Assembly: GCA_038727515.1 (NCBI GenBank)
Contig: JAVYVS010000005.1
Span: forward strand, 32,001-96,000
Length of the DNA stretch: 64,000 nucleotides
Direction of reading: 5' to 3'
Origin: Candidatus Methanomethylicia archaeon
GTDB taxonomy: Archaea > Thermoproteota > Methanomethylicia > Culexarchaeales > Culexarchaeaceae
In this document: positions 11,201 to 63,521 of the stretch, one piece after another
Position numbering within the stretch: the first letter of the stretch is position 1
Layout of the letters: each line of letters opens with the position of its first letter
The notes under the pieces: generated by a model
The model's database searches: none
What the model saw: the letters and a program-made list of their open reading frames with translations, nothing else
Told to the model about the DNA's origin: nothing
Position numbers and translations under genes: made by a program

Positions 11201-12418
11201 CTATTTTCTAGCTTTTGTTGCAACTATTTTGATTATATCATTCATTTTTAATTTAGCATTTTCTCCAATTCTCTGCTTAGTTCTAACATCTATTGCATAT
11301 AGAAAGGTGTCTCCCAACTCTTGGTGTATGATATATGCCAATTCTCTTGCTGTTGTTCCATTTTTAATTAATAAGGCGTCTGGAAGTATATTACCATAAT
11401 GATCCGATAATTTATTAATATCTTCTACAGGGTATACAACCATCATTTTCAGTATTTTAAATACCGCTGTATTAAGTATTTCTTGAACTCCAGTTCCACC
11501 CCATTTATTCAATACCCTTTCCTCTATTATTTTAAGTGCTTTTCTTTGATTTTGTGTTATTCTACTTTCATCAATAATTTCAAAATTTTCATCTCCAGGT
11601 GAATATTTTATAAGTCCTTTTTCAGCCGCTCTTCTAAGTACAAGTTCTGCTTCTGCACTACATGGAATTATTATTTCATTTGGATATTTCTCTTTAAGTT
11701 TTTTAATACCATCTTCAGCTGTGGGTAAATCTATCTTGTTTGCTGCAATTAATATTGGTTTGTTTATTTTTCTGAGTTCATAACAAAAGTTTATTAAATC
11801 TTCTTCATTCCATGAATTTAATTTCTTTCCTTCCAATCCTGTGTTTTCTAATGCTTTATTTACATGCTCCTTAGTTACTTGAAGACCACTTAATCTTTCT
11901 AATAATATTTCATCTACCTCTTTTTCTCTTATTTTAATCATTCTTTGCCAATCATTCATTATTATCTGTCTAATCCACATCACTATTTCTCTTTCTAAGA
12001 ATTCTACATCTTTACATGGATTGTATGTTCCTGGAGGAACTATTCTTCCTTCCTCATCTGTGGATCCAGAAGCATCTACAATATGAATTAATACTGATGC
12101 CCTTCTTAATTCATCTAAAAATTTGTTTCCTAAACCTCTACCTTTCCATGCATCTGGTACTAATCCGGCCACATCCATTAATTGAAATGGTATATATCTT
12201 ATTCCATTTATGCATATAGAATTTTTTGGGTTATCTTTTACATTGAATTCCCTGCATACGCATGGTATCTTTACATACGCTGTCCCTATATTTGGTTCTA
12301 TTGTTGTAAATGGATATGGTGCTATTTTCACAGGAATTAATGTTGCAGCTGAAAAAAATGTAGATTTTCCAGCATTTGGTTTTCCAACTATTCCACAAAG
12401 AATAATTATTCCTCCCAT
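11201..12418 (-). CDS. ychF: Obg-family ATPase YchF (start either ATG 12418 or ATT 12403)
   Basis: GKPNAGKSTFF, YPFTTIEPN, DVAGLV, ANKID, C-terminal TGS domain. Confidence 0.95.
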   Translation of the reverse strand: MGGIIILCGIVGKPNAGKSTFFSAATLIPVKIAPYPFTTIEPNIGTAYVKIPCVCREFNVKDNPKNSICINGIRYIPFQLMDVAGLVPDAWKGRGLGNKFLDELRRASVLIHIVDASGSTDEEGRIVPPGTYNPCKDVEFLEREIVMWIRQIIMNDWQRMIKIREKEVDEILLERLSGLQVTKEHVNKALENTGLEGKKLNSWNEEDLINFCYELRKINKPILIAANKIDLPTAEDGIKKLKEKYPNEIIIPCSAEAELVLRRAAEKGLIKYSPGDENFEIIDESRITQNQRKALKIIEERVLNKWGGTGVQEILNTAVFKILKMMVVYPVEDINKLSDHYGNILPDALLIKNGTTARELAYIIHQELGDTFLYAIDVRTKQRIGENAKLKMNDIIKIVATKARK

Positions 12419-12494
12419 ATCTTTAATGACGTCTTTTATTTTGCACTATCCTTTTATTCTTTTTCTATTTATAAATTTGTTTAGAGTGATTCTT

Positions 12495-13832
12495 TTGAGG
12501 AGAGTAGTTATCGTTGGATTTGGTACAGCTGGTCTTAGAGCGGCTTTATCTGCTAAAGCTCAAAATCCGGGGTCAAATGTTATTGTTGTATCTGAAGAAC
12601 AATATTTAACGTATTCTCGTTGTGGGCTGCCCTTCGTTATTGGTGGTGATATAAAAAGTTTTGAAAATTTAATTGTGGTTTCTAATGCTATACTTCAAAA
12701 ATCTGGCATAGATTTAATTTTGGGTTTTAGAGCTATTGACGTTATTGGTAATACCCTATATATTGACAGTATTGATGGAAAGGAAAGTCGGCAAATAAAT
12801 TTTGATTCATTGGTAATTGCTACAGGTTCAAAACCATTTATTCCACCTATTAAAAATGTTAATATTAACAATGTCTTTACATTGAGGAGTATTGATGATG
12901 GTATAAAAATAATGAAATCTCTTAACAATATTAGGCACTTTGCTATAGTTGGGGCTGGTGCTATTGGATTAGAATGTGCTGAAGCATTTTCTAAGAGGGG
13001 GTTGACTGTTAGTGTAATAGAGCTTATGCCAAAGGTTTTACCTAATATTTTGGATCATGATATGGCTTTGCTAATACAGGAAGATATGGTAAATCATAAC
13101 GTTAATTTAAAATTAGGTAAAAGAGTTGAAGAGATACTTGGTTCTAATAGTGTTAAGGGTTTAGTAGTTAATGGTGAAATTATTGATTGCGATGCTGTAT
13201 TAATTGCCACTGGTGTTAAAGCAGATGTAGTTTTTGCTAAAAATATTGGTGTAGAACTGGGGTCAGTAGCTATTAAAACTGATGACTTCATGGAGACTTC
13301 AAAAACTGGAGTTTATGCTGCTGGAGATTGCGTTGAAACTAAAAATTTAATAACATCAAAACCCTTTACCCCATATTTAGGTACCGTTGCCTATAGACAG
13401 GGAAATGTTGCTGGTGCTAATGCTGCTGGGGGGTCTATGGTCTTTCCTGGTTCTCTTGGGTCTATTGTTTTAAGGATTTTTGATTATGAAATTGGATTTA
13501 CTGGTTTAACTAATGAACAAGCTGAAAAAGAGGGATTGAATACTATTGTGAGCAAAGTTAAATGGTATACTAAAGCCGAATACTTTCCTCATCATGGAGA
13601 CATAACTGTTAAATTAATTTTTGATGCTAATAGTAGGAAATTATTGGGATGCCAGATCGTTGGAACAAGTGATGTAGCTCAGAGAATTAATTTAGCATCA
13701 ATGGCTATTTCTATGGGGGCTAAAGTTGATGATCTCATTAAATTAGATACTTGTTATAGTCCTCCGGTTGCTGATGTAATTGAACCAATAGTTAAAGCTT
13801 CAGAAATAGCTTTAAAAAGATTTAAGAAGTGA
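12495..13832 (+). CDS. FAD-dependent NADH oxidase / CoA-disulfide reductase family
   Basis: GFGTAG, YSRCGLPF (redox Cys), ATGS, GAGAIG, YAAGD, YSPP; real start is near 12486-12495, not 12210. Confidence 0.88.
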   Translation: MRRVVIVGFGTAGLRAALSAKAQNPGSNVIVVSEEQYLTYSRCGLPFVIGGDIKSFENLIVVSNAILQKSGIDLILGFRAIDVIGNTLYIDSIDGKESRQINFDSLVIATGSKPFIPPIKNVNINNVFTLRSIDDGIKIMKSLNNIRHFAIVGAGAIGLECAEAFSKRGLTVSVIELMPKVLPNILDHDMALLIQEDMVNHNVNLKLGKRVEEILGSNSVKGLVVNGEIIDCDAVLIATGVKADVVFAKNIGVELGSVAIKTDDFMETSKTGVYAAGDCVETKNLITSKPFTPYLGTVAYRQGNVAGANAAGGSMVFPGSLGSIVLRIFDYEIGFTGLTNEQAEKEGLNTIVSKVKWYTKAEYFPHHGDITVKLIFDANSRKLLGCQIVGTSDVAQRINLASMAISMGAKVDDLIKLDTCYSPPVADVIEPIVKASEIALKRFKK

Positions 13833-13857
13833 ATATTTCTGGAGGTAAGAGGTAAAT

Positions 13858-14793
13858 ATGTTAAAGATATTAGTTGCCGATGAAATTTCAAATGAAGGTA
13901 TTGAAATTCTACGAAAAGCAGGTTTTATTGTAGATTTGAATTTTGATATTTCCTATGATGATTTAAAGAGGATCATTGGAAATTATGATGGTTTAATAGT
14001 TCGTAGCAGAACTAAAGTTGATCGTAGTATTATTGAAGCTGGAGTTAATTTACGTTTCATAGGTCGAGCAGGCGTGGGTTTAGATAATATTGATGTAAAA
14101 GCTGCTGAAGAAAGAAACATAATTGTTTTTAACACACCTGAAGCGCCTTCAACATCAGTATCTGAACTCTTTTTTGGACTACTTTTATCTTTGGTTAGGA
14201 AAATTTCAATTTGTGATAAACTTATGAAAATGGGGGAATGGCCAAAAAGACATGCTATGGGTTTTGAGTTAAGGGGTAAAACCCTTGGAATAATTGGACT
14301 AGGTAGAATTGGTAGAGAAATTGCTAAGAGGGCTAAAGCTTTTGAAATTCATGTAATCTATTATGATATAGTTCGCCCTGATACTTCCGTTGAAAGAGAG
14401 TTAGGTGTTCAATATATGGATTTCGATAATTTATTAAGGAATTCAGATATAGTTACGATACATTTACCTCTAACACCTCAAACTTATCATTTGATAAATG
14501 AAGATAAACTTAAAATTATGAAGAAAGGCGCTATACTTGTCAATACTTCTAGGGGTGCGATTATAGATGGTAAAGCATTACTCAATTATTTGAAAAATGG
14601 TCATTTATATGGCGCATGTTTAGATGTGTTTGAAAATGAACCTCCAAAGGAGCCTTGGGAGAAGGAGTTAATATCCCTTGAAAATGTTGTTGCTACTCCT
14701 CATATAGGTTCTATGACTATTGAAGCTCAAGATAGGGCTGCAGTTATCTTGGCAAATAAGATCATTGAATTTTTTAGGGGAAAAGGTTTATAA
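13858..14793 (+). CDS. D-2-hydroxyacid dehydrogenase (SerA-like, short form)
   Basis: RAGVGLDNID, GLGRIG, NTSRG, LDVF..EP, TPHIG. Confidence 0.9.
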   Translation: MLKILVADEISNEGIEILRKAGFIVDLNFDISYDDLKRIIGNYDGLIVRSRTKVDRSIIEAGVNLRFIGRAGVGLDNIDVKAAEERNIIVFNTPEAPSTSVSELFFGLLLSLVRKISICDKLMKMGEWPKRHAMGFELRGKTLGIIGLGRIGREIAKRAKAFEIHVIYYDIVRPDTSVERELGVQYMDFDNLLRNSDIVTIHLPLTPQTYHLINEDKLKIMKKGAILVNTSRGAIIDGKALLNYLKNGHLYGACLDVFENEPPKEPWEKELISLENVVATPHIGSMTIEAQDRAAVILANKIIEFFRGKGL

Positions 14794-14850
14794 AGAATGT
14801 TTTACTCCTATATCGGTAGTACGTCTAAAGTGTAGTGAGAGTTGATAGAG

Positions 14851-15414
14851 ATGTATAAGCATATATCTCTGTTGTGGAAGGATATTAGAAAGGGGAAATT
14901 TCCTGAATTAGTTAGAGCAAGACTTATAAAGTGGCGTAGAGAACCAACGGTCGTTAGGATCGATAAACCTACTAGACTTGATAGAGCTAGATCGCTTGGA
15001 TATAAGGATAAACAAGGGTTTGTTGTTGTTAGAGTTAGGGTTAGACGCGGGCCTATGAATAAAATTAGACCTGATAGTGGTAGACGACCAAAGAGAATGG
15101 GAGTTTATGGGCATTCTGTTCGTAAAAGCCTACAATGGATAGCTGAAGAAAAAGCTGCTAGAAAATATCCAAATCTTGAGGTTCTTTCAAGTTATTGGGT
15201 TGGTGAAGATGGTAGATATAAATGGTTTGAAGTCATTCTTGTTGATCCAAATCATCCAAGTATAATCAATGATAATAATATTAATTGGATTTGTAATCCA
15301 AGTCAACGTGGAAGAGTTTTTAGAGGGTTAACTCCTGCGGGTAGAAAGTCTAGAGGATTAAGATTAAAAGGTTCTAGAGCTGTTAAGAATAGGCCGAGCA
15401 GATCTTCTGCATGA
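14851..15414 (+). CDS. rpl15e: 50S ribosomal protein L15e
   Basis: [39 protein letters not shown]. Confidence 0.97.
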
Positions 15415-15480
15415 AATTTTTATATTTATCAATTTCTTTTATTTAACTGTTTATCAAATTAGATAATTTGGTTTTCTGGT

Positions 15481-15939
15481 ATGTCACTCAAAGATTTTCC
15501 TATAGCTGAAATTTTAATAAATGCTTTTTGTCATGCTACTGAAGATTTGGAAAAAGTGCGAAAAGCTATGTTAAACTTTATACCTGAGTTATATAGGTCA
15601 AGAATAGCTATTTCTGAAGATGTTCTAGAAGGGTATTATGGTAATAGGATATTAAATCTAAAAATTCATATATCTGATGTTGAGATAGTTAAAAATATTA
15701 TTGATTTTATTTGCAGAAATATTCATGAAGCTGATAAAAAGCTGATTTCAAGATCTTTTTTATCTAGATTAGATAGTTCTGGAAACCTATATTTAAGATT
15801 TGATAAAGGTGCAGCATATAATGGTCTCTTACGTTTACATGATGGTAGTGATGTAGTTAGAGTTGTTATAAAGTTTAAAGTTGCTAAAAAGCTTATAAAA
15901 GATTTTTGTGTTGATATTGGATTGATTATGGGTGTGTAG
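15481..15939 (+). CDS. Predicted RNA-binding protein (DUF54 / exosome-superoperon type)
   Basis: HATED..KV, EG.YGN.I, LYLRFDK; synteny. Confidence 0.82.
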   Translation: MSLKDFPIAEILINAFCHATEDLEKVRKAMLNFIPELYRSRIAISEDVLEGYYGNRILNLKIHISDVEIVKNIIDFICRNIHEADKKLISRSFLSRLDSSGNLYLRFDKGAAYNGLLRLHDGSDVVRVVIKFKVAKKLIKDFCVDIGLIMGV

Positions 15940-15941
15940 TT

Positions 15942-16700
15942 ATGGGTAGGAAATTTGTGGATCTACATGTTTTTTCAAATCTTTCTATAGGTTCATCACC
16001 TATTTCTGAAATAGTTAAGATGGCTTCTGATATGGGCTTTAAGTATATTGGCATAGCAGATTTTAACAAGAATAACATTAATGAAATTAAAGATGTTAAG
16101 AAATTATTTAATGATTATGGTTTAGACATGGTTAGTCGAATTGATTTATCTCCAAATAATGTTGAAGAACTAAAGAGGGATCTAAGGTTTTTAAGGAACA
16201 AAATTGAAATAATAGCGGTTTTTTGTAGTAATCTATCTGTTGCGAGATTTGCTGCTAGAGATAGTCGTGTTGATATACTCATGTTTTCCTATACTGATTG
16301 GAAAAACAACTTTTTTGATGTTTCTGAAGCTAAACTTGCAGTTGAGAATGAAGCTGCATATGAAATAAATATTGCAAATTTAATTAGATGCTCAAGTTTT
16401 AATGAAAGAATAAAAATGATGAGGATTATATCTGAGAATGTTAGAATTGCCTTAAAGTACAATGTGCCTATAATTATTTCATCTGGCGCTAAGAATGTTT
16501 TTGAACTGAGAGAGCCTAGAGCTATGGCTTCTATAGCTACACTTTTAGGTATTTCTGAATTTGATGCATTAAGATGTTTATCTGATGTTCCATTAAATTT
16601 GATCATCAGTAATAGAGATAAATTGTGTGGTAAATTGTTGTATAAAGGGGTTAAGTTATTAGGTAAAGTTGGTGATCAAAGTGAAGTTAAGGAGGAATAG
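15942..16700 (+). CDS. rnp3: RNase P protein component 3 (Rpp30)
   Basis: PHP-like fold; D.RVDIL, ISSGA...ELREPR; synteny. Confidence 0.9.
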   Translation: MGRKFVDLHVFSNLSIGSSPISEIVKMASDMGFKYIGIADFNKNNINEIKDVKKLFNDYGLDMVSRIDLSPNNVEELKRDLRFLRNKIEIIAVFCSNLSVARFAARDSRVDILMFSYTDWKNNFFDVSEAKLAVENEAAYEINIANLIRCSSFNERIKMMRIISENVRIALKYNVPIIISSGAKNVFELREPRAMASIATLLGISEFDALRCLSDVPLNLIISNRDKLCGKLLYKGVKLLGKVGDQSEVKEE

Positions 16701-17016
16701 ATATATTATTTTTACGGTTTTTTGTAGAGATAATGTTAATATTAGTTTTCGTGAAATTTTAAATTCAATTTTTAACTCAATATTGTCACTATTTGGGGAA
16801 GTTGGTGCAAGTAAAATTAGCTTTAGTTTGATGAGATATTACCCTGAAAAAAGGCTTGGGATTTTACGTTGTGATCATTTAAATTTAATTAAGATGAGGA
16901 GTGCATTAGCTTTTATCAAAGATATTGAGGGGAATAATGTAACCTTTAGGGTTATTAAAGTTACTGGTACCTTCAGGAAAGCTGAGAAAATCCTTAATAG
17001 TTTGTCTATTACTTAA
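16681..17016 (+). CDS. rnp2: RNase P protein component 2 (Pop5)
   Basis: R.RYI.F, LFGE.G, GILRC, VTGT.RK. Confidence 0.9.
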   Translation: MKLRRNRYIIFTVFCRDNVNISFREILNSIFNSILSLFGEVGASKISFSLMRYYPEKRLGILRCDHLNLIKMRSALAFIKDIEGNNVTFRVIKVTGTFRKAEKILNSLSIT

Positions 17017-17021
17017 ATTTA

Positions 17022-17088
17022 TGGGGGATGAAGAAGCCGTCCCAGATGTTTGATGAATGGATGACATTCTCGCGACGAACAGACCCCA
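17022..17088 (+). ncRNA. Candidate box C/D guide sRNA
   Basis: GC-rich intergenic island: TGGGG/CCCCA terminal stem, C-like ATGAAGA 17028-34, D'-like TTGA 17050-53, C'-like TGGATGA 17058-64, D-like CAGA 17080-83. Confidence 0.6.
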
Positions 17089-17157
17089 CTCTCATAGATA
17101 GAGTAAAGTTTATTGCTTAATTAAACATTAAACTAATAAAGTTAAGGTGATTAGAAA

Positions 17158-17871
17158 GTGTTTACACCACCTGGTATGGGTTATGATAGGGCTATAACCG
17201 TATTCTCTCCTGATGGTAGATTATTTCAAGTTGAATATGCAATGGAAGCTGTCAGAAGAGGATTTACTGCTCTTGGAATTAAATGTGTTGAAGGCGTGGT
17301 TCTAGCTGCTGAAAGGAGGAAAATCTTACCATTAATAGATTACTCATCTCTAGAAAAAATATTCAAGATAGATGAACATATTGGTATAACTTATGCAGGT
17401 TTTCCTTTCGATGCTAGAATATTAATAGATTATGCACGTCAGGAAGCACAAATAAATAGGATTCTATATGATGAACCTATTGATGTTGAAGTTTTAACGA
17501 AGAGGATTAGTGATGTTATGCAGATCTATACTCAACGTGGAGGTGTAAGGCCATTTGGTGTAGCGTTTTTAGTGGCTGGAGTAGATGATAATGGTCCAAG
17601 ACTTTTAATGACTGAACCAAGTGGCGCATATGCATCATATTTCGCTAGAGTTATTGGAGCTGGCAGTCAACAGGTTACTGAATTTCTTGAGAAGAATTAT
17701 AAATTTGAAATTTCTCTTAACGACGCTATAAGGATAGCTATTAATGCGTTAAAACCTGTGATTGAAGGACCTATGGAACCTGATAAATTAGAGCTTGGTG
17801 TTGTCTCAGTTAAAGATAGAATTTTCAGAAAATTATCTAGAAATGAGATAGCTTCGTTATTAGGCGTATAA
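17158..17871 (+). CDS. psmA: Proteasome subunit alpha
   Basis: GYDRAITVFSPDGRLFQVEYA signature. Confidence 0.98.
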   Translation: MFTPPGMGYDRAITVFSPDGRLFQVEYAMEAVRRGFTALGIKCVEGVVLAAERRKILPLIDYSSLEKIFKIDEHIGITYAGFPFDARILIDYARQEAQINRILYDEPIDVEVLTKRISDVMQIYTQRGGVRPFGVAFLVAGVDDNGPRLLMTEPSGAYASYFARVIGAGSQQVTEFLEKNYKFEISLNDAIRIAINALKPVIEGPMEPDKLELGVVSVKDRIFRKLSRNEIASLLGV

Positions 17872-17978
17872 AGCGTTCTTCATTTCATAAAGATAAAAAT
17901 ATAATATTATTTTGACATAAAATTAGTATAAGTGCAATATTTATGGGCGAGGGTCCTCCTATAAATAGGGTGTATTAA

Positions 17979-18674
17979 ATGGGTTCGAAGAAAGATTTCA
18001 TTATTGCAAGGTATCTATATAAAGGTGAAAAATTTGAAATTCTCGTGGATCCAAAATCTGCATGGATGTTTAAACAAGGTGAACCTATCAGTCTAGACTC
18101 TGTTTTAGTGGGCGATATCATATATAAGGATGCAAACAAGGGACTGAAAGCTTCTGAAGAAGTTTTAAAGAAAGTTTTTGGAACTACAGATATTAGTAAA
18201 ATTGCTCCGATTATTTTGAAGAAAGGTGAATTGCAATTAACTGCTGAACAGAGGAAAGAAATGATAGAGAATAAGAAGAAACAAATTGTAAACTTTATAT
18301 CTAAGTGTTGTGTAGATCCTCGTACAAATCTTCCTCATCCCCCTAAACGTATAGAATTAGCTTTAGAGGAATTGGGCGCATCAATAGATCCATTTAAAGA
18401 TGCTGAAGAACAGGCAGTAAACATTATAAAAAGTTTAAAAAGCATTTTGCCATTGAAGGTTGCTAATGTCACCTTAATGGTTAAAGTAGGACCTGAATAT
18501 GCTGGTAAAGTATATGGGGTAATTTCAAGTTTTGGGGTTATAAAACGTTCTGAATGGTTGAATGATGGTTCTCTATTATGTGAATTGGAAATGCCAGCTG
18601 GGCTTCAATTATCTTTTATGGATAAAATTAATAAGCTATGTAAGGGGAACGTTGAAGTAAATATTCTACATTAA
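17979..18674 (+). CDS. Ribosome assembly factor SBDS/Sdo1
   Basis: [26 protein letters not shown]. Confidence 0.96.
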
Positions 18675-18689
18675 TGGAGGGAAGTAAGT

Positions 18690-19382
18690 ATGTCTGTTAA
18701 AACTCGAAAATTTGTTTTTCCTGGGGATGTAATTGCTGAAGGCAATTTAAAAGCTGGTGCTCATACTTATTATGAAGAGGGTAAAATTTTCTCTTCAGTA
18801 TTTGGTTTATGTGAAATTAGAAATAAAGTGGTAAATGTAATTCCATTACATGGATTCTATGTTCCCAGAGTTGGAGATGTTGTTATTGGGATAATTGTAG
18901 ACAATTCACCTACAAGTTGGCAAGTTGATATAAATTCACCTTACATGGCTATATTACAAGTTTCTGATGCATTATCAAAACCAGTGGATGTAGCTAGGGA
19001 GGATATTAGGAAATACCTTAAGATTGGGGATATCTTAATGGCTGAAGTTATTGCCTTTGATAAACTTAGAAATCCATTAATTTCTATTAAGGGGAATGAG
19101 TTAGGTAAACTAGAACGTGGTTCCCTTATAACATTTTCACCAGTTAAAGTTCCGCGATTAATTGGTAGAAGAGGTTCTATGATAAATATGATTAAAAAGG
19201 AGCTTAATTGTAAAATCATGATAGGTAGAAATGGTAGAATTTGGGTTTCATCTGTAGATCCAAAAGTAGTAAACCTAGTGAAAAAAGTGATTTTCCTCGT
19301 TGAGGAGGAATCTCATTTACCTGGACTTACGGATAAAGTTAGATCATTAATATTGGAAGAGCGTGAAAAGATTGGTGAATAA
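18690..19382 (+). CDS. rrp4: Exosome RNA-binding subunit Rrp4
   Basis: Y.P..GD.VIG S1 domain; KVPRLIGR.GSM KH domain; G.NGRIW. Confidence 0.96.
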   Translation: MSVKTRKFVFPGDVIAEGNLKAGAHTYYEEGKIFSSVFGLCEIRNKVVNVIPLHGFYVPRVGDVVIGIIVDNSPTSWQVDINSPYMAILQVSDALSKPVDVAREDIRKYLKIGDILMAEVIAFDKLRNPLISIKGNELGKLERGSLITFSPVKVPRLIGRRGSMINMIKKELNCKIMIGRNGRIWVSSVDPKVVNLVKKVIFLVEEESHLPGLTDKVRSLILEEREKIGE

Positions 19383-19438
19383 CCATTTAACTTATATTTT
19401 TGGGATGTCAATTTTTTCTAGTCATTTTGTTTGGGGGG

Positions 19439-21009: not shown

Positions 21010-21010
21010 A

Positions 21011-21244: not shown

Positions 21245-21248
21245 AAAT

Positions 21249-21794: not shown

Positions 21795-21848
21795 ATACTC
21801 CATTTAACTTAATTTTATATATCATGATAACGTCTAGGGTTGTTGCTG

Positions 21849-22097: not shown

Positions 22098-22153
22098 AGT
22101 TTAATCGCAAATATTTTATTTTACCTTTTGATTGTTTATATGGGGTTGATAGC

Positions 22154-25423: not shown

Positions 25424-25429
25424 GTGTTT

Positions 25430-27517: not shown

Positions 27518-27518
27518 T

Positions 27519-37623: not shown

Positions 37624-38442
37624 ATGTTTAATATTGGTGTTTCATCTCTATGTTTTATTTCAAAAAATTTTGAAGTTTTCATTGATTCTTTAAAATTTTC
37701 CAATATACGTTTTTGGGAGATTGTAGATGATGGTCCGCACTTTTTAGATTTAAATAAAATTTCCCTCCTTCTTAATGCTATTTCTAGTGAGGATATAATT
37801 TTTAGTTTGCATGCTCCATATACTTCAGTCAATATTTCTGCAACAAATTATAAAGTTAGAAAATTCAGTATGGATGTTTATATAGAGTCTGTGGAACATG
37901 CTCATGCTATAGGGTGTAAGTATATTGTTTTTCATCCAGGTTTATTGGATTCTTTTTCTTATTTATTTAATGATTTAAGAGATTCTGTAATTGAAAGTAT
38001 ATACTTTCTTTTATCTCTTGGTGATAAATGTGCTAGTTATGGTATAACTCCATTATTGGAGAATCTAGCTACTGAGAGATCCACTATCCTCTCCATTAAT
38101 AGTTTTAAGGATTTTCTAAGTAAATCCAGTAAGTTCATGGTTGCATTAGACATATCTCACGCTCATGTTATGGGTTTATTCAATGGATATTTAAATAACC
38201 TCCATAACAGAATTGCATATCTACATATTAGTGGTAATGATGATAAAGCTGATAGACATTGGCCTTTAAATGTTGGCTCTCAATATTGGAGGGGCTATCT
38301 TAAAGAAATTTTAAATTTTGGTTTTAATTGTCCTTTAATTATTGAAAATCTTTCATATTTTGATGCATTAAAAAGTTTGGATATTTTAAAATCTTTTTTC
38401 AAAAATGAGTTTTCCACGGAGTTTTTCCATATCTCCATATAA
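37624..38442 (+). CDS. Sugar phosphate isomerase/epimerase (AP endonuclease 2 TIM barrel)
   Basis: HAPY, FHPG, LEN, LD.SH, H.S.N...D.H, IE metal motifs. Confidence 0.88.
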   Translation: MFNIGVSSLCFISKNFEVFIDSLKFSNIRFWEIVDDGPHFLDLNKISLLLNAISSEDIIFSLHAPYTSVNISATNYKVRKFSMDVYIESVEHAHAIGCKYIVFHPGLLDSFSYLFNDLRDSVIESIYFLLSLGDKCASYGITPLLENLATERSTILSINSFKDFLSKSSKFMVALDISHAHVMGLFNGYLNNLHNRIAYLHISGNDDKADRHWPLNVGSQYWRGYLKEILNFGFNCPLIIENLSYFDALKSLDILKSFFKNEFSTEFFHISI

Positions 38443-39336
38443 CTCAATGATTTTCTTGTATTCTTCTTCATCATAAAATTTACAGATTCCATTCGTGTAA
38501 TCTTTAGCTACTTCTATACAGAATCTAGTGGCTTCTTCTAAGCTTTTTATATATGTAGCTCCAGTTGCACAACCAGCTACTGGTACTTCTGCTGTTATGG
38601 CTACACCTACCACTGGTGATTTTGTAGCTATCCATGGTTGCATTATACTATTTATGTGGTATATTCCATCTATGTATGGTGTTATATCTTGCATAGTTAT
38701 TGGAACTATATATGCTCTATGCCCAGTAACTCTCTCATAGATATTTATTAGATCATCGCTGACCTTTAGTATCCAACCATTTAATACCGTGGGTGTTATG
38801 GCAAAACCATTAACCTTTATGACTCTATTACCTTTCGTAGCGTCAACTGATAGTATTGCATCCATTCTTTCATCAACTTCATTAATGACCATTGTATACA
38901 TGTCTACTGGCGAATCCATAAATGGTACTGGTTTATGTGGTTTCGTTGGAGCTTTAGGGCATATATGTGTTGTTATTATTACATCTCCTTGTATTTTATC
39001 ACCTTTTTTCATGAGGTCTGCCAATTTAAATGCAGATGCTATTGCTACTATTGCTCCATCAGCATCTGATACTAAACCCAACATTTGAGGTCTAGCTCCC
39101 AATCCGCCAAGTCTACCGATGATTCCAAGCGTTGGTTTATTTCCACTTTTAGTTTTACCGTTTTCACCTTGTATAAGTATTTTTACTAAGTCTGTTTTCC
39201 CCCTTTTTCCCTCTATAGTTTTTACTTCTACTTCTTCTATTCCTCTTCTTCGGAGTTCATTTTCTATTTCAAATCCAGTTATATTGGCATTTTCAAGAAT
39301 ATCTATTGCTTCCATAACTTGTTTTAAGCATGATAT
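38386..39336 (-). CDS. DUF1177-family protein (probable ATA start at 39336; first ATG at 39315)
   Basis: GRLGG.GARP, VSDADGA, PVPFM.SP, DATKGNR, QDITPY, HINSI.QP. Confidence 0.85.
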   Translation of the reverse strand: MSCLKQVMEAIDILENANITGFEIENELRRRGIEEVEVKTIEGKRGKTDLVKILIQGENGKTKSGNKPTLGIIGRLGGLGARPQMLGLVSDADGAIVAIASAFKLADLMKKGDKIQGDVIITTHICPKAPTKPHKPVPFMDSPVDMYTMVINEVDERMDAILSVDATKGNRVIKVNGFAITPTVLNGWILKVSDDLINIYERVTGHRAYIVPITMQDITPYIDGIYHINSIMQPWIATKSPVVGVAITAEVPVAGCATGATYIKSLEEATRFCIEVAKDYTNGICKFYDEEEYKKIIELYGDMEKLRGKLIFEKRF

Positions 39337-39374
39337 TTTAAGTCACCTCCATAAATTCCCAATTAACTATTGAT

Positions 39375-42881: not shown

Positions 42882-43277
42882 TTATTCTGAGGTGAGCCAA
42901 TTTATTGCTTCATTTATTTCATCGATATTATTACATGATATTTCTATAGTTATTGGTCCAAGTGGAGATTCTCCATCTTTCTCGCAGAATGATACTTGCC
43001 CCATATATGCTGCCTGTTTATTTAAATAGAATGCTATCTTATTTTCCATTATTGATCGTTTTAATATTGCTTTTGCAGTAGTTAGTATTCTCCTTCTCCT
43101 TAATGTTTCACGTAATTTTGATAGGACTTCTATGTTATCCCCTTCTGCTATTAATGTTTTTACCCCATTTTCTTCTATTAATTTGATTGTTTCTGAATTT
43201 ATGATATTTAGTATTGCCTTCCTTACTTTTTCCTCATCTTCTGTGGGTTTCACTTCAGATTTAATTATTATTTTCAT
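42882..43277 (-). CDS. UPF0201/DUF54 RNA-binding-like protein
   Basis: PTED.EKV..AI.N, LNKQAA..G, SPLGPI. Confidence 0.85.
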   Translation of the reverse strand: MKIIIKSEVKPTEDEEKVRKAILNIINSETIKLIEENGVKTLIAEGDNIEVLSKLRETLRRRRILTTAKAILKRSIMENKIAFYLNKQAAYMGQVSFCEKDGESPLGPITIEISCNNIDEINEAINWLTSE

Positions 43278-43821
43278 GAGCTTTTACCACCTCTTCTAGA
43301 GTTTTAAATGTTATCCTCTCTAGTTCCTCTAGTGTACCTTCATTTATTATTACTTTATCTGCTAATGCTATTACTTTACCTATTCCAACTTCTAATTCCC
43401 TAAAATCTCTTTTTTCAAATTCTTCCCAAGTTTTTGGGTCGTCTTTTCTTCCTCTATCTATGAGTCTTTTAAATCTAGTTTTTGGAGATGCATGTACAGC
43501 TATTATTGTTACTTTTCCAATATTCTTAAATTCTTTAATTTCTTCTATATTTCTAACACCCTCTATTAAAATCTTATCTGATTTTATCCTCTCAATTTTC
43601 TCTATACATCTTAATGCTACTATATTTGCACCCATTTTTTCTCTTAATTCCATCATTAACCATCCAAGATTATTTGAAGTTGGTTCTATACTTCTAATTT
43701 CAGCTTCTTCTCTAATAATATCACCCATAGAGATTGTTGGTATACCCATCTTCTTTGCAATTTCACTTACAACTGTTTTTCCAGCTCCTGGCATTCCAGT
43801 AAGACATATTATGATTCTAAT
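43261..43821 (-). CDS. P-loop kinase (dephospho-CoA-kinase-like/UPF0200); probable ATT start at 43821
   Basis: IIICLTGMPGAGKT, SMGD..R, EG.R..E, R.R.DD, RD..EL..G. Confidence 0.85.
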   Translation of the reverse strand: MRIIICLTGMPGAGKTVVSEIAKKMGIPTISMGDIIREEAEIRSIEPTSNNLGWLMMELREKMGANIVALRCIEKIERIKSDKILIEGVRNIEEIKEFKNIGKVTIIAVHASPKTRFKRLIDRGRKDDPKTWEEFEKRDFRELEVGIGKVIALADKVIINEGTLEELERITFKTLEEVVKAHENNN

Positions 43822-43890
43822 AGTGAATCCCCTCTAAATATCTATTAAAGTTTATTTAGTTTTTCTCCTTATTTATTTGAGGTGTTAATT

Positions 43891-57200: not shown

Positions 57201-57306
57201 ACTTCATAAGAAGGTTCATAGAATACTTTTCTATATCTCTGTGCATGGTTATGAAGTTTTTGAAGGAATATGGATTGATGGTGATTTTTCATGGAAAACG
57301 TTGTAG
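54226..57306 (+). CDS. Large secreted Ig-like repeat protein (adhesin/S-layer-like)
   Basis: N-terminal signal peptide; beta-rich; three ~100-aa repeats; T..NG.F.F carboxypeptidase-regulatory-like motifs. Confidence 0.72.
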   Translation: MVKRLLFSLILIFSILMISIPFSNESLYYPLAPPFNEVQVFYHSRGSGTFSYMYDKNRGVMKGICTAVKNIGSILDEADLTLIFKGYLTTSFSGVIERLFVKYTLKGRLYVKSVCLPNTFSASAEVGVYVDLMGSRMVLASKTIELYYSGEDQYVFNDISQTVSKELNLRVFKGEVIEFTVTMHISSVALGALEDYSYSLADFSSGDYGLRIILYIGYLEDSYISASINPSKAYIGDSIEISGYLVDSNGRGIQNSILLLYLDSNYISSTRTESNGYFYFQYIVPMDIVPGEKIFKVVFEGDSGHLPSSQEFKLIVPSFSLHASHYSIKIPFGSVRGVDIYVNDIYNYNLPVEVKIGDLPNWISYGIVGDTLSIPPFQFHIYFTTYDVGEFNLEILAVGSDGQIKKILLNIESYLQPTYSISVIPYVNEVFQGSSTTYTVILTPLNGYNGLINLFLEVNGLNFSSHFSLNPVPLYSYEKQITLTIQVPPFVNVGSYDLIVKGVDSNGLIVYSNPFKLNVKEGPYFKISVHPTFSSIFSGETAIFYVNLTSFNGFNDYISLEVLCDVNVSKSFRFIFSENHINLSPSNLTKIVKLYVSPSSDVYGIFNFTIYAYSSFHQDSCSFSLEVKKSASIELYYVNWLRNTWHHEYVFMPYEAIGIIISYEPLKNLTMILPKHIFGEFNSSVIKLFTDENGTCRFIVFLNGLQCPTGFYEIYLLDDSGEIVCTSHICIDSLNAFYQVYNDYNYSRILFYLKWSHNNESIRFRGGNIEFILKSNIPTLNRCLINDSGVAIFNVPPIILDSHLIFHVHYAFSPIRVKSANSSLLSIIVPYRRISYDILRISFNDFNFNLNLRFYYEDNTPAKLMLLLVAYYDDSIVEFNYVTDVNGFASINFSLPPSKYIVFKLLCRDINDRWVSRVKDPSDLYWDENIGVLSYVNVQNGFVNFTFIPTSRFMNFKCTFYAMFYDEFDTLFYSFSTLIPLNHGSINYYTFSLHKKVHRILFYISVHGYEVFEGIWIDGDFSWKTL

Positions 57307-58601
57307 AATATATCTTCGTAGGATTTATGTTTTCACTTCTTTTATATTCAAGTTTAATGTTTATGGGAGAATTGGCTGATCGTTATTATTTTGCATATAA
57401 TTTTAAACCTAACTTTATCTATGATTATATACTCTCTTCTTTAGCTCCTGAGGGTCGTTTAGATGCCTTCTTCATGCAATCTTTATCATATAATTATTCA
57501 TCATTTTTCGGATACTATTGGAGTTATGAGAATATTAAGGAAATTTTAAAAATTGATGATTATCCTATTTCCATTCAAATTTCTCCATCTTTAAAGGTAT
57601 TTGTAGACTTTATTGATGGTTTTCTAGTCATAAATTCATTTCATGCTCAATTTTTAAAACCATGTGGTCAAGAGGCATTTATCTATGTATTTAGTAATGG
57701 AAGTTTAAACCATTTTGTACATTTATATTTAATTGATGGATTTGGGAAATCTAAATTAAGTTTCAAACCTGAATTAGTTGTAGCATTTGTTAAGTATGGT
57801 TCTCTTTTTGGATATGGATTTTATGGGGAATTTGAAATCTTTCATATGTTTATTCCTCCTGGAGTTCTATATCTATCAAGTTTTGAATGTGAACAAGGGT
57901 TTTACGCTATTGATGGTATAGCTGGAAGCTCCTCATCTAGATTAGTTGATAGCTCTGGAGTATCATTTTACACTAGAGATTTTAGAAACTTTACGATTTT
58001 TAGTGGGTATTTGAATATTTCTATTTTTATTAGAGGTTTTGGAAGTTTATGTGTGTCTTTCGGCGTATGTTCATACAATTTTAGTAATATGATTATTTTA
58101 GGGAATGCTTCGTTTCCAATTAACTCTAGTGAGATTAATGAGTATTTTTTAACGATTCCAATAACAAAAAGTTTTCATGGTGAAAATATGAGGTTATTCA
58201 TAAGATTTTATTCAATTAGTGATGATACTATATACATTTATTTCGGTGGTTGGAGTTATTCGTCAAAATTCACTTTAAATTGTAGTATACCTATTTTTTC
58301 TCAAAGTCCTTTATCTAATTGCCTCCATACTAAATTTATTTGGCGTCTTTGGTTTGAAGAAGCTGCTAACATCAGTAGTCTCCATCAATTTAAACCTCTA
58401 TGTATAGTGGTTTCCAATTTTAATGGAATGTTTTATGTAGCCCTTATACCGGAATTAGAAATTTCTATTGGTTGTATAATTAATGGTGATGCCACCTATA
58501 GACTTCTTAACATTAATGGATATCATTTATTGTGTAAATTGTCCTTACCATTAGCGTCTGATAGCATCCACCAAAAAATTACAGTAATACATGAGGTGTG
58601 A
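57291..58601 (+). CDS. Pilus-associated protein with N-terminal TM anchor
   Basis: Hydrophobic N-terminus; overlaps the upstream gene. Confidence 0.65.
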   Translation: MENVVEYIFVGFMFSLLLYSSLMFMGELADRYYFAYNFKPNFIYDYILSSLAPEGRLDAFFMQSLSYNYSSFFGYYWSYENIKEILKIDDYPISIQISPSLKVFVDFIDGFLVINSFHAQFLKPCGQEAFIYVFSNGSLNHFVHLYLIDGFGKSKLSFKPELVVAFVKYGSLFGYGFYGEFEIFHMFIPPGVLYLSSFECEQGFYAIDGIAGSSSSRLVDSSGVSFYTRDFRNFTIFSGYLNISIFIRGFGSLCVSFGVCSYNFSNMIILGNASFPINSSEINEYFLTIPITKSFHGENMRLFIRFYSISDDTIYIYFGGWSYSSKFTLNCSIPIFSQSPLSNCLHTKFIWRLWFEEAANISSLHQFKPLCIVVSNFNGMFYVALIPELEISIGCIINGDATYRLLNINGYHLLCKLSLPLASDSIHQKITVIHEV

Positions 58602-58607
58602 TGGTGG

Positions 58608-59000
58608 ATGTCCAATAAGGGTTTTTCAAGGATTATTGAATTACTTTTTGCACTCATTATAATATCTTCTGCTTCTGTTATTTTCCCACTTATTAGCTAT
58701 AGAGTTTACATTGATGTAGAATTCATGTATAGTATTGCCTTTAATGCTCTTTCTACAGTTGAAGAGAATGGGTACTTAAGTTTTATGGTTTATAATGGAA
58801 ATTGGGGTGAATTAACAAATTATATTAAAAACTTCATACCTGCGAATTTTAAATTTCGCTTAATTGTTTATGATGAATCTCTTAATGTACTTTATTCCAA
58901 TGGAGTTAATCCTAGCGATTTTGTTCATCTAATCTCTATTCCATATATATTGAAATTCAAGGGGGTGACTAGAATAATTGTATTGGAGATTTGGAGATAA
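58608..59000 (+). CDS. Minor pilin-like protein
   Basis: MSNKG/FSRIIELLFALIII class III-like signal. Confidence 0.72.
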   Translation: MSNKGFSRIIELLFALIIISSASVIFPLISYRVYIDVEFMYSIAFNALSTVEENGYLSFMVYNGNWGELTNYIKNFIPANFKFRLIVYDESLNVLYSNGVNPSDFVHLISIPYILKFKGVTRIIVLEIWR

Positions 59001-59643
59001 AGGACAGATTATAATTATTTTTGCAGTATTATGTGTTGCATTAATTTATCAATTAGCTTACTTTATACCATACTATAGTGTTAGTGTAAGTTCACCCAAA
59101 CCATATATTCAACTTTTAAACCTTATGATTAAGAGATTCGTATGGGATTCACTTATTTACAATATTAGTGGATATTCATTCATAGATAAATTTAATTCAA
59201 ATTTAAATATTCTTTATAAATTTTATCCATTATCTATAAACCTATCATCTCATAGGCTAGTTTCTCACAATGGATATGTTGAAGCTTTTGTTTCTCTAGA
59301 CATATATGATTTTAGATATGGTTGTAAGTATAATTTTATCTATAGATGTTTCCTTGGTTTAAATCTCGTTAACTTTACAATTTTACGTTCTTATCTGCCT
59401 AGTTTTAAAGGTATTAAAGTTATAGTTAAAGTTTTTGGGGATGAAGATTTCCTAATTAATTCTCCAATCTTTGAAGTGTCTTATTCATATAATGAAACTA
59501 TTCTCACCTGTATCCCTGAAGTAGAGTATCTTCAAGATCAATACTATTGCATCTACTTCATTGCTCCCCTCAACACTCGTCATTTTACTCTATGTATAAC
59601 TGATTGGAGAGGGGTGAAATGTATTGTGTTTTTTGAATGTTAA
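58978..59643 (+). CDS. Minor pilin-like protein
   Basis: DKG/QIIIIFAVLCVALI class III-like signal; TD.RG C-terminal motif. Confidence 0.72.
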   Translation: MYWRFGDKGQIIIIFAVLCVALIYQLAYFIPYYSVSVSSPKPYIQLLNLMIKRFVWDSLIYNISGYSFIDKFNSNLNILYKFYPLSINLSSHRLVSHNGYVEAFVSLDIYDFRYGCKYNFIYRCFLGLNLVNFTILRSYLPSFKGIKVIVKVFGDEDFLINSPIFEVSYSYNETILTCIPEVEYLQDQYYCIYFIAPLNTRHFTLCITDWRGVKCIVFFEC

Positions 59644-60298
59644 GGGGATTTCGACTATTATTTCAAATGTTATTATATTTTCAGTATTTATGGTGTTATT
59701 AGTTGCTTCATTCCATTCTGGATTTCAATACTTAAGCGTTTTAGAACTTTATTTAAAATCTAATGATGCTATTGATTTTTTGAGATATCTAAGATTAGAG
59801 ATTAATAGGCTTTCATTTGTCAATGATTCTGTGAAGATATTTAATACTCATTATGAAATTAAATTGGAAAATGCTGATAGAATAGCTATTTTCATTGATG
59901 ATTTATTTTTGGGAAGCTTTCCCCTCAACATTTTTTCAATACCACTCTATTATTATTCTCCTCCAATAATTCATGAAAGTTTTATACATTTTAATGGGAC
60001 TTTAGGTTCTATACATTTACGTGGTTATAATGCCCATCTCATTCCATCAATTTCAGTATCAAACTTAGATTCTGTCTTATATGTTAAGTTTTTTGTTGTA
60101 AATGGTACTGGTAGTATCCATGGGAATTTTATTTTGAAGGTTAAAGGTTTAATGAAGGCCCATTACTCTATAGCATCTAATGGTGAAGTTTCAATTAAAG
60201 TTTATACCAATCTATATAATGGTTCAGAGGTTTTGCACTTACGTGGTATTATAAAATTGTTATTTGAAGTTGTTTTCTTAGAGGTGGTTCCATTATGA
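59624..60298 (+). CDS. Minor pilin-like protein
   Basis: VKG/ISTIISNVIIFSVFMVLL class III signal; GGGGTGA SD. Confidence 0.75.
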   Translation: MCFLNVKGISTIISNVIIFSVFMVLLVASFHSGFQYLSVLELYLKSNDAIDFLRYLRLEINRLSFVNDSVKIFNTHYEIKLENADRIAIFIDDLFLGSFPLNIFSIPLYYYSPPIIHESFIHFNGTLGSIHLRGYNAHLIPSISVSNLDSVLYVKFFVVNGTGSIHGNFILKVKGLMKAHYSIASNGEVSIKVYTNLYNGSEVLHLRGIIKLLFEVVFLEVVPL

Positions 60299-60963
60299 TC
60301 TCTTCAGAAATTTTTTCGTCTATAATTCTTATTGGATTGATTTTGACAATAGGATCTATTGGTTTGCAATTGTATGTATCCCATTATGTTTTTACATTGG
60401 TATCTTTGGAAATTGAGAGTGTGAAGTCTTTCTTTAGAGATTTAGTAAATGGTTTAAATATGTTAAATCCAGTTACATATACGTTTTCTCTTAGATATGG
60501 TATTTTGATAATTTCAGTGGATGGATTTCAATTTCTAAATTTTGCTAATGAAACTATATTTTCCTCTTATTTTATGATTTTGAAATATGTTTCTCAATAT
60601 AAAATTTATCCATCAAGAAATGTGATAATTGAAAGTGGCAACTCTACATATTTTTCATTCTATATTGTTGGGTGTGAAAATCAGCTTATACTCTACCTAT
60701 ATCCTCTCCTCTCCATAGATATGGATAAGGTTGTTGTTGGAGCAGTTGTTTTTAACATTAATAATTCTCTCAAAATCGTTAGTGGAAAATATATTTTCAA
60801 TCCATCTATAATTTTCATTAATCGTTTTTATAGAATTACTATGCCTATAAATATGTATCTTCACTATCATTTTCATTCATATAACTTTGTTTTTAATGCG
60901 GAGAAATTTTCACATATAAATTTAGATTTTAGGTTAATCTCAATAGGTATTTCTGGTGGTTGA
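60295..60963 (+). CDS. Pilin-like protein lacking a basic leader
   Basis: SSEIFSSIILIGLILTIG pilin-like helix; ATGA coupling to the upstream gene. Confidence 0.62.
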   Translation: MISSEIFSSIILIGLILTIGSIGLQLYVSHYVFTLVSLEIESVKSFFRDLVNGLNMLNPVTYTFSLRYGILIISVDGFQFLNFANETIFSSYFMILKYVSQYKIYPSRNVIIESGNSTYFSFYIVGCENQLILYLYPLLSIDMDKVVVGAVVFNINNSLKIVSGKYIFNPSIIFINRFYRITMPINMYLHYHFHSYNFVFNAEKFSHINLDFRLISIGISGG

Positions 60964-61381
60964 TTTGAGGAATGTATTATCTAATTGTATTTTGACTTTC
61001 GGTCTTATGCTTTCATGTATATTGTCTTTCTCCTCTCTGAGTATCTTCTGTTATAATGTTATGGATAATGAACGCATTTATTCAACTTTAGCATGTGTTT
61101 TTAAAGATTCTATAATTTATGGTGCTCAAATATGTAAAGATCTTGGTCCAAATTCTAGTATACGTTTGAAATTAGAGGTACCAACTAAATTAATTGGGTT
61201 TACGATCTTTATACTTAATTGTGAATGTGTATTATTCGATATTAATGGAAGAATAGTCTTTAGGTTTAAGCTACCTTCTTCACCCTCTATTTCTTATGTT
61301 AATTCATCAGCCTCTATTTCTTATGAATATATTTTCATTTATTTCTACAGTCTTGATGGTAAAATATTTGTTAAATTGTAA
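60956..61381 (+). CDS. Small membrane-anchored / pilin-like protein
   Basis: N-terminal hydrophobic helix; last gene of the operon. Confidence 0.58.
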   Translation: MVDLRNVLSNCILTFGLMLSCILSFSSLSIFCYNVMDNERIYSTLACVFKDSIIYGAQICKDLGPNSSIRLKLEVPTKLIGFTIFILNCECVLFDINGRIVFRFKLPSSPSISYVNSSASISYEYIFIYFYSLDGKIFVKL

Positions 61382-63521
61382 ATTTTGCCCCCTCTAATTG
61401 TTCTTTTATCTTCTTTATAGTTTCTTCTCCCATCAACGGTATCTTCCTTAAGTCTTCAATTTTCGCCTTTTTCAAATCTTCAATAGATTTATAACCAGCT
61501 CTATATAGTAGTCTTGCCCTTACTCTCCCTATACCTCTTAACTGTACTAATTCAAGTAATTCTGGTTTGCATCCATATTCTAGTCTAGATGTTAATTCTT
61601 CAAGTTTTTGTATATGATTTGTTAATCCTAGAACTTTACATATTTCTGCAGCTGAATATGTTAACCATTGTGTTGTTAAGGCTATAGTGTATATATCTCC
61701 AGGTCCAACATCATATTTATCTATTATATCATCTTCCTTTTCTTCATTTATCCAATCATTTAACATCATAGCAGTTTTTAATGCTTGTAGCATTATTGTT
61801 TGGTCAATTTCATCTTCACATTCTTCCATGTTAATGAGTAGTTCTCCCCCCATTTCCATAATTTTTGAAATTAGTAATGATCTTTCTCTCCTCGTTATAT
61901 GTAATTTTGGCATATCTGGTGTTGTAGATACTAGGTGTAGATATGCGATTTCACTAGCCTTTCTCTTTTTCTGTAATCCTCTTATAATGTATACTGCTGA
62001 TAATGGGTCTATGTATAATTGTGATACTCTAAATCCCAGTTTTGTTGCATTCATGTATTCTCCCAAGATCTTTACCATTTCATTTTCTATTAAGAACCCT
62101 AATACTCTTCTCAGAACTTTCATTAACTGTCTTTCTTCACCATATTGTTTATAATAAAATGTTTTTCTCATGAATTCCATGATCTCTTCCTCCGTTTTGA
62201 CAAAATCTGTGGATATTATTGCAAGTATATGTGATCTTAATGCTGATTCTGAAGCTAATTTAGACCATATTCTCTCCGGTGGTGCTTTAACATAATTTTC
62301 CATTAAAAATTCTTGTTCTTGTATTGTTCTTGCTATTAATATTGCATCCCCATTTTCATCATATTTTGGTCTTCCAGCTCTCCCAGCCATTTGATGATAT
62401 TCAAGTATTGGTATTGTTTGGTATCCTGTTATACTATCATATCTATAGTAATTCTTTATTATCACTCTTCTTGCTGGTAAGTTTACTCCTGCAGCTAGTG
62501 TTGGTGTGGCACATATAACCTTTATTTTGAATTCTCTAAAACCCTTTTCAATGGTGCTTCTTTGATTCGCAGATAATCCTGCATGATGAAAAGCTACTCC
62601 ATTTCTAATACATGTAGCTAATTCTTCACTTACTCTTGTAGTTTCTTCTGATGATAGTATTTCATTCGCGATACTCATCAACTCCCTTTTTTCATTAGCC
62701 TTTATATATTTTGATATTAATGGTATCAGTTTGAATGCTGTTTCCCTAGAATTGTTTCTAGTATTTGTAAATATTAGAACTTGCCCTCCCTCTTCTAATA
62801 TTTGCTTTGTTAATGCTTCGCATGGATCCATCTTTTCCCTTGTAACTTCAATTACACTCTTATCTTCATATACTATCTTTCCATCTATGTACACACCTTT
62901 CCTTAATGGTACTGGTCTCCACTCACTCTTAATTAATTTTGCATTTAACCATTCTGATATTTCATCTGAGTTCATTATTGTAGCGCTTAAACCTATTATT
63001 TGCGTGTTTGGATTTATCAATTGTAATTTTGATAATACCACTTCGAGTGTGGGACCTCTTTCTTGATCATTTATTAAATGTATTTCATCTGCTACAACAA
63101 TGTTTATATCATTTATCCATGAAGGTTTATTTCTTAAGATGCTATCAGCTTTTTCATTGGTCATAACAATTATATCGTATTGTTTTAACCATGGTTCTGG
63201 ATTATCATAATCTCCCGTGCTTATTGCAACTTTCAACCCCGCTTCTTCATATTTCTTAAATTCTTCATATTTTTCCGATGCCAATGCTTTTAATGGTGTA
63301 AGATAAAGTGCTTTTCCTCCATTTTCAATTAATCTTTTAGTTATTGCAAGTTCTGCAATTAATGTTTTTCCAGCGGCAGTAGGTATTGCTAATACTATGC
63401 TTTTACCATTTAAAACTCCACTTTTTATTGCTTGTATTTGTGGTGGGTATAGTTCGATGATTCCATGTTTTTCTAATATATTTTTTATGGTGTTTGGTAT
63501 TGGTAATTCTCTTATCTTAAT
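61371..63521 (-). CDS. hel308: Ski2-like helicase Hel308/Hjm (716 aa if started at ATT 63521)
   Basis: LYPPQ and PTAAGKT (upstream of the ORF-track start), DEIH, SAT, FHHAGL, TPTLAAGVNLPA, QMAGRAGRP, C-terminal HhH. Confidence 0.95.
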   Translation of the reverse strand: MKIRELPIPNTIKNILEKHGIIELYPPQIQAIKSGVLNGKSIVLAIPTAAGKTLIAELAITKRLIENGGKALYLTPLKALASEKYEEFKKYEEAGLKVAISTGDYDNPEPWLKQYDIIVMTNEKADSILRNKPSWINDINIVVADEIHLINDQERGPTLEVVLSKLQLINPNTQIIGLSATIMNSDEISEWLNAKLIKSEWRPVPLRKGVYIDGKIVYEDKSVIEVTREKMDPCEALTKQILEEGGQVLIFTNTRNNSRETAFKLIPLISKYIKANEKRELMSIANEILSSEETTRVSEELATCIRNGVAFHHAGLSANQRSTIEKGFREFKIKVICATPTLAAGVNLPARRVIIKNYYRYDSITGYQTIPILEYHQMAGRAGRPKYDENGDAILIARTIQEQEFLMENYVKAPPERIWSKLASESALRSHILAIISTDFVKTEEEIMEFMRKTFYYKQYGEERQLMKVLRRVLGFLIENEMVKILGEYMNATKLGFRVSQLYIDPLSAVYIIRGLQKKRKASEIAYLHLVSTTPDMPKLHITRRERSLLISKIMEMGGELLINMEECEDEIDQTIMLQALKTAMMLNDWINEEKEDDIIDKYDVGPGDIYTIALTTQWLTYSAAEICKVLGLTNHIQKLEELTSRLEYGCKPELLELVQLRGIGRVRARLLYRAGYKSIEDLKKAKIEDLRKIPLMGEETIKKIKEQLEGAKFTI

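Follow-up and report, generated by a model that had tools for sequence, protein, structure and literature searches.

We analysed a window of 64,000 nucleotides (G000:C5:32001-96000) from an uncultured hot-spring archaeon. The source genome, G000, is a Culexarchaeaceae metagenome-assembled genome (MAG) of 1.59 Mb in 12 contigs with 32.6% GC, placed in the order Culexarchaeales of the class Methanomethylicia/'Culexarchaeia' (PMC9723716). Four genes on the minus strand of the window (hel308, a P-loop kinase gene of the UPF0200 type, DUF1177 and ychF) carry ATT or ATA 6-7 nt after a Shine-Dalgarno (SD) motif. For the first three, this near-cognate codon occupies the orthologous start column and is probably where translation begins. 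The features concerned, in window coordinates, are the following.

61371-63521, minus strand: hel308 coding sequence read from ATT at 63521-63519 (Pfam DEAD, Helicase_C and archaeal helicase domain 4).
63529-63533, minus strand: GGAGG SD motif, 7 nt before the hel308 ATT, from the sequence layout.
43261-43821, minus strand: UPF0200/AdkA-like P-loop kinase coding sequence read from ATT at 43821-43819 (Pfam AAA_17, AAA_18 and CoaE).
43829-43834, minus strand: GAGGGG SD-like motif, 7 nt before the kinase ATT; (A/G)(A/G)GGGG in genomes G001 and G003-5.
38386-39336, minus strand: DUF1177 coding sequence read from ATA at 39336-39334 (Pfam DUF1177, 2.5e-133).
39343-39350, minus strand: GGAGGTGA SD motif, 6 nt before the DUF1177 ATA, with an in-frame TGA inside it, from the sequence layout and the 16S 3' end.
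11201-12418, minus strand: coding sequence of the ychF/OLA1-type GTPase, with ATG at 12418-12416 and ATT at 12403-12401 (Pfam YGR210-like_G4, MMR_HSR1 and TGS).
12411-12415, minus strand: GGAGG motif, 7 nt before the ychF ATT, read as Gly-Gly codons if the ATG is used; from the sequence layout.
63535-64000, minus strand: 3' end of mcm (AAA-lid and winged helix; Pfam MCM_lid and MCM_WH_arc), with its TAA stop at 63537-63535.

The coordinates and spacers given for the four sites in the original prediction were all correct on the minus strand. The 16S 3' end of G000 reads ...GGATCACCTCCT, and the commonest SD placements among 408 confident ATG starts of this genome are GGAGG + 7-9 nt and GGTGA + 4-6 nt. 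At the four sites the SD is complementary to the 16S 3' end and the spacers are 6-7 nt; set against the 408 confident starts, all four therefore have normal SD geometry. As had also been claimed, three of the four genes show an in-frame stop upstream with no canonical start between: the stop lies 8 (hel308), 4 (kinase, a TAG) and 2 (DUF1177) sense codons before the ATT or ATA, and ychF is the exception. The motif itself carries little information. GGAGG + 7 nt + ATT occurs 64 times in the genome, is not above chance, and 7 nt is not a favoured spacing for ATT. We take the significance of these ATT, ATA or ATC sites (ATH; AUH in mRNA) to derive from orthology, not from the bare motif.

Orthologues were compared in further genomes, among which G003-5 are Culexarchaeum and f3, f4, f5, f7 and f8 are other families. 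ATT, ATA and ATC recur in relatives at the same columns; the outcome named in the original prediction as a refutation, a total lack of ATH there in relatives, clearly did not occur. For the kinase, the start column is ATT in G000 and G001 and ATA in G003-5, and each of these genes has an in-frame stop 1-4 codons before it; in G007, G008, G013 and G020 the same column is ATG or TTG (M/L-K-K-[IL]-I...TGMPG). Read from the ATT, residue 4 aligns to residue 2 of SSO1041 (PDB 3h0k). The three Pfam profiles all begin within residues 3-8, ahead of residue 10, the first canonical ATG, which lies within GMPGAGKT. Differences among relatives in codons 2-9 are mostly synonymous. In G000, no ATG, GTG or TTG is present in any frame from a TATA-like region to the ATT.

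The divergent intergenic region between the kinase gene (minus strand) and a LigT-like gene (plus strand), 43822-43881, contains ~45-60 nt (GAAAAACTAAATAAACTTTAATA...) that are near-identical between genera, and the flanking proteins are only ~63-76% identical between those genera. This points to strongly constrained promoter or 5' untranslated region (5'UTR) elements.

For hel308, ATA or ATT stands at or adjoining the orthologous column in 12/12 Culexarchaeales genomes, 6-7 nt after GGAGG(G/T)G; these relatives include Ca. Culexarchaeum nevadense and Ca. Culexmicrobium cathedralense. In 4/12, TAA immediately precedes the ATA. The identical column is TTG or GTG in most of ~70 Bathyarchaeia and other loci (L/V-K-I-E-E-L-P-I-P), and the start is GTG in two other families of the class. 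Residue 2 of the protein read from the ATT corresponds in the alignment to residue 2 in P. furiosus Hjm (PDB 2zj2). A homopolymer indel was considered here, as A6 in place of A5 would put an ATG in frame, and was rejected because that ATG is not conserved across relatives.

Only 13 nt separate the mcm TAA from the hel308 ATT. The two genes resemble an operon, and the junction ...ATGCCAAC(A/T)TA(A/G)-(N)GGAGG is kept across the order. Beyond the order, the start column in Bathyarchaeia and others (L066-L140) is nearly always TTG or GTG and rarely ATG, which suggests long-standing selection for a weak hel308 start. Two Bathyarchaeia MAGs (L086 and L098) have CTA or CTG at this column.

The DUF1177 column is ATA in G000, ATT in G001, ATC in G002, ATG in G003-5 and G006, and TTG in family f3. 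An indel was rejected here as well: one A fewer would give an 'MLKQV' reading, and orthologues read (M)SCLKQV.

The ATT of ychF had been proposed as a start as well; it is not needed in G000, which has the in-frame ATG, and is plausible for the family. In Culexarchaeum, GAT, GTT or ATT stands at the column of the G000 ATG and ATA at that of the G000 ATT; a stop lies 1-2 codons upstream, and no in-frame canonical start precedes the P-loop. ATT or ATA as the true start thus has its best candidates in hel308, the kinase and DUF1177, where the orthologous column and the relatives' ATH codons coincide, and not in ychF of G000.

In ychF of G003-G005 (L049-L051), a +1-frame ATG or TTG lies just before GGGGGAGAAAAATA, forming a G_GGG_GGA heptamer. 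Translation in these genomes would start either at the ATA six nt after the G-run or through a -1 slip. A programmed frameshift from a conserved out-of-frame ATG was rejected for hel308 and the kinase, and is possible only for ychF of G003-5. The 5' end of ychF is also overlapped, by ~200 nt, by a listed 540-aa open reading frame (ORF) at 12210-13832 on the plus strand. The match to its pyridine nucleotide-disulphide oxidoreductase domain is kept if reading begins at 12540, and the real start of this ORF probably lies downstream of the listed one.

The frequency of such starts was estimated with an SD-blind orthologue screen that compared G000 with 1.08 Mb from a genome of a sister genus (G003, contig 1). 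The 884 reciprocal-best pairs (median identity ~72%) had been filtered to remove antisense shadow ORFs, rRNA, overlapping upstream genes and conserved 5'UTRs, and candidates were curated by eye. Where the G003 start is unambiguous and canonical, the G000 codon is ATG 158, TTG 54, GTG 25, ATT 8, ATA 5, ATC 2 and CTG 3 times; TTG starts are common, as the original prediction had it. After individual reading, ~8 of the 884 genes had a robust non-canonical start in G000, or ~1% of genes for this one genus pair. Besides hel308, the kinase and DUF1177, the screen recovered a HemK2-like gene that has ATT after GGAGGGGTGA, a TrmY-like gene with ATA in both G000 and G003, a single CTG case and a further, weaker case with ATT. 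When the SD was taken into account, AhcY joined these genes, with ATT in G000 and ATG in G003. A comparable, partly different set was seen in G003, comprising FolD (ATT), B249 (ATA), A2163 (ATC in both genomes), A1438 (ATA) and ychF. ATG-to-ATH flips thus occur at fixed columns between the two genera. Strong SD motifs were found in 6/7 SD-blind cases, against 322/884 genes overall, which fits compensation of a weak codon by a strong SD.

A further candidate lies outside the window, in the gene for ribosomal stalk protein P1:

G000 contig C3:65873-66190 (loci L228-L260): rpl12/P1 stalk gene, with the MEY(I/V)YA column.

P1 has a universal N-terminus, MEY(I/V)YA, and the codon at its Met column is ATA or ATC, 5 nt after GG(A/G)GGTGA, in each of the 12 Culexarchaeales genomes examined as well as in a second family (f5), there in five genera. 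It is ATG in families f4 and f8 and TTG in f7. If the ATA or ATC is the true start, AUH initiation in the class would not be limited to low-abundance proteins.

From the conserved columns and SD placement we infer that hel308, the UPF0200-type kinase and DUF1177 are probably translated from SD-positioned near-cognate AUU or AUA codons by the initiator tRNA (Met-tRNAi), as a minority mode of initiation. A strong SD (GGAGG, GAGGGG or GGAGGTGA) would pair with the CCUCC of the 16S 3' end, so that the AUH, 6-7 nt further on, comes to lie in the P site. There it would be read, with a third-base mismatch, by ordinary Met-tRNAi (anticodon CAU), and the protein would start with Met and be made at a lower rate than from AUG. 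This mode would flip with ATG or TTG at the same column between genera, and would be fixed long-term on some genes: on hel308 throughout the order, and on P1 in two orders of the class. Its probable role is to set the expression level, for instance keeping Hel308 low relative to the upstream-encoded MCM, because hel308 uses weak TTG/GTG starts in neighbouring lineages and follows mcm here. AT-biased mutation from ATG to ATA or ATT may supply the variants, since GC is 32.6% in G000 versus 38.9% in G003, and a strong SD may buffer them.

A bolder version is possible, though doubtful. It holds that AUH plus a near-perfect SD forms an efficient and stable start in the Methanomethylicia/Culexarchaeales, sufficient even for the multi-copy stalk protein P1 and kept on hel308 throughout an order; the start-codon set would then be widened past AUG, GUG and UUG in this group, and gene callers would mis-start such genes.

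Several observations weigh against initiation at the ATH codons. Genome-wide counts of SD, spacing and codon gave no ATH signal, with neither SD-preceded ATT nor SD-preceded ATA enriched. In 1,869 long stop-to-stop ORFs, correctly spaced SD 5-mers (strict matches) ahead of in-frame codons close to the 5' end were enriched 10.6x for ATG, 7.5x for TTG, 2.2x for GTG and 0.8x for ATT. These counts have low power, since a strict 5-mer SD precedes no more than 16% of first-ATG starts. Among the orthologous start columns, ATH (15/407) was no commoner than AAT (8), TAT (8) or TTT (9). Statistics alone would therefore not reveal ATH starts, and the proposal that the lineage routinely uses them was not supported. 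Individual genes also offer other codons. In ychF of G000, the in-frame ATG at 12418-12416 lies five codons upstream of the ATT, overlaps the SD and gives MGGIIILCGIVGKPN. Culexarchaeum is the sole genus with an in-frame ATG upstream of hel308 (three codons, abutting the SD). For P1, a GTG that belongs to the SD lies three codons upstream, in frame in every case, and allows a protein three residues longer, and AhcY likewise has an in-frame GTG inside the SD itself. DUF1177 of G000 has an ATG at codon 8 that could yield a protein seven residues shorter. Finally, cases seen in one genome only need caution, because the MAG holds at least one probable homopolymer frameshift.

The alternative that survives best, although we consider it unlikely, is a start at another nearby codon or by another route. 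This would be the ATG at the SD for ychF of G000 and hel308 of G003-5, the GTG in the SD for P1 and AhcY, or an out-of-frame ATG followed by frameshifting or termination-reinitiation. The string ATGGGAGG is in frame for ychF, hel308 of G003-5 reads GGAGG-ATG-AGT-AAG-ATT, and GGGGTGA-ATG-AAA-ATT occurs in two other genes. The heptamer in Culexarchaeum ychF would suit the frameshift route, and the short gap after the mcm stop makes reinitiation at hel308 plausible. However, an ATG 0 nt from the SD falls outside the spacing of the 408 confident starts, none of which has GGAGG with a 0-2 nt spacer. The out-of-frame ATG upstream of hel308 stems from TAA+TGG and is absent where the stop is TAG (TAGCGG, TAGTGG), and the kinase of G000 lacks any candidate codon back to its TATA-like region.

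The second alternative places initiation at the nearest downstream canonical codon; the proteins would be shortened at their N-termini and the ATH would be non-coding or incidental. Standard gene callers would indeed pick the ATG at codon 8 of DUF1177 in G000 and at codon 10 of the kinase. The kinase would then lose strand beta-1 and begin inside the P-loop. For hel308, no canonical start occurs in frame until ~79 codons downstream, beyond Walker A, and initiation there would remove this motif; the claim that a canonical-start model cuts into conserved N-termini was borne out in both genes. DUF1177 of G001 has ATT in place of the Met8 codon, and the skipped codons keep their amino acids despite synonymous DNA changes. 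We regard a downstream start as distinctly improbable.

A class-wide relaxation of fidelity through altered aIF1, aIF2 or initiator tRNA, which would make AUH a general and efficient start, appears very unlikely. In its favour, two orders of the class carry ATA or ATC at the Met column of the highly expressed P1. In addition, the ~1% of genes seen here is well above the handful of AUH starts known in E. coli. Against it stand the missing genome-wide SD-ATH enrichment and the features of aIF1 and of the initiator tRNA. The earlier suggestion that aIF1 be inspected for fidelity changes brought up no loop-1 peculiarity: across 30 genomes, the loop-1 RKWGR is identical in families with canonical P1 and kinase starts, and nothing lineage-specific was found. 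The initiator tRNA is equally standard (CAU anticodon, A1:U72 pair, GGG/CCC anticodon stem), with nothing lineage-specific. Assembly or sequencing artefacts (a misread ATG, a homopolymer indel) or pseudogenes have scarcely any likelihood: the A5 run between the out-of-frame ATG and the hel308 ATT and probable frameshifts elsewhere in the MAG would speak for them, but the ORFs are full length, 60-80% identical to orthologues and free of internal stops, and the same ATH columns recur in independent Culexarchaeales MAGs that belong to other genera, come from other studies and differ in flanking sequence, which argues against both error and decay.

Further observations concern other parts of G000. 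The string GGGGTGA-ATG-AAA-ATT-AG(A/G)-AA(A/G) recurs at C1+:547919 (A590) and at ~11.4 kb on C5 (NAC-like, A2914); its ATG abuts the SD (0 nt), its ATT lies 6 nt downstream, and the G003 NAC orthologue has ATG at the ATT column. In A598 (C1+:558995 region), an A8 run separates an ATG from the reading frame; with a ninth A the sequence would read MSEKKILEIK, matching MVNEIKILEIR of G003. The N-termini of hypD (A1695, C2+:203849) and of an MFS gene (A149, C1+:401100) lie in another frame, and all three genes have probable frameshifts. A cbf5/TruB-like gene (A1912; contig C2, minus strand, ~298.4 kb in reverse-strand coordinates) reads 'HAGTLEP' and then a stop, and continues as 'RGNPKVSGVLPIALENATK' in another frame, with the same layout in G003. 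This break looks like the known crenarchaeal cbf5 pre-mRNA (bulge-helix-bulge) intron.

Translation of hel308, the kinase and DUF1177 from AUH codons would have consequences for annotation and for the study of initiation. Prodigal-type gene callers, to our knowledge, use only ATG, GTG and TTG. Canonical-start annotation would truncate hel308 (Walker A) and the kinase (strand beta-1), or start genes in frame inside the SD. AUH codons on hel308, order-wide, and seemingly on P1, in two orders, would be natural test cases for start-codon fidelity by aIF1 and aIF2. The arrangement of mcm and hel308 points to a weak start codon as the means of setting the ratio between two replication/repair proteins from one operon. 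The P1 start should be testable, because cultured Methanosuratincola share the P1 feature. Full-text searches of PMC and bioRxiv returned no report of archaeal AUH gene starts, nor one on Culexarchaeia start codons.

The closest known systems include bacterial ones. Near-cognate AUU, AUA and AUC starts occur in E. coli infC and pcnB and are alternative initiators of NCBI table 11. They involve a third-base mismatch with the initiator tRNA, are SD-dependent, rare and gene-specific, and are thought to hold expression down. The archaeal cases share the third-base mismatch, an SD at normal spacing, rarity and restriction to particular genes. They differ in that they would operate in the aIF1/aIF1A/aIF2 system, involve ~1% of genes, and are conserved for hel308 and P1 across an order or more. 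In contrast to E. coli infC, the gene of the fidelity factor aIF1 (SUI1) starts with ATG after an SD-like motif (AAGGAGG in Culexarchaeaceae) in G000 and in all 10 other Culexarchaeales genomes where it was found, and infC-like autoregulation would therefore not apply. Compared with archaeal SD-led initiation at AUG, GUG and UUG, the SD/anti-SD geometry is the same, with GGAGGTGA 5-9 nt upstream, and aIF1 of G000 retains the zinc knuckle and basic loop 1. Work on P. abyssi and S. solfataricus describes archaeal aIF1 as discriminating against non-canonical codons (PMC6237735); the Culexarchaeales genes differ in having such codons conserved at gene starts. Another archaeal parallel is hel308 itself, which nearly always starts with TTG or GTG in Bathyarchaeia; the Culexarchaeales appear to have gone one step further, to ATA or ATT.

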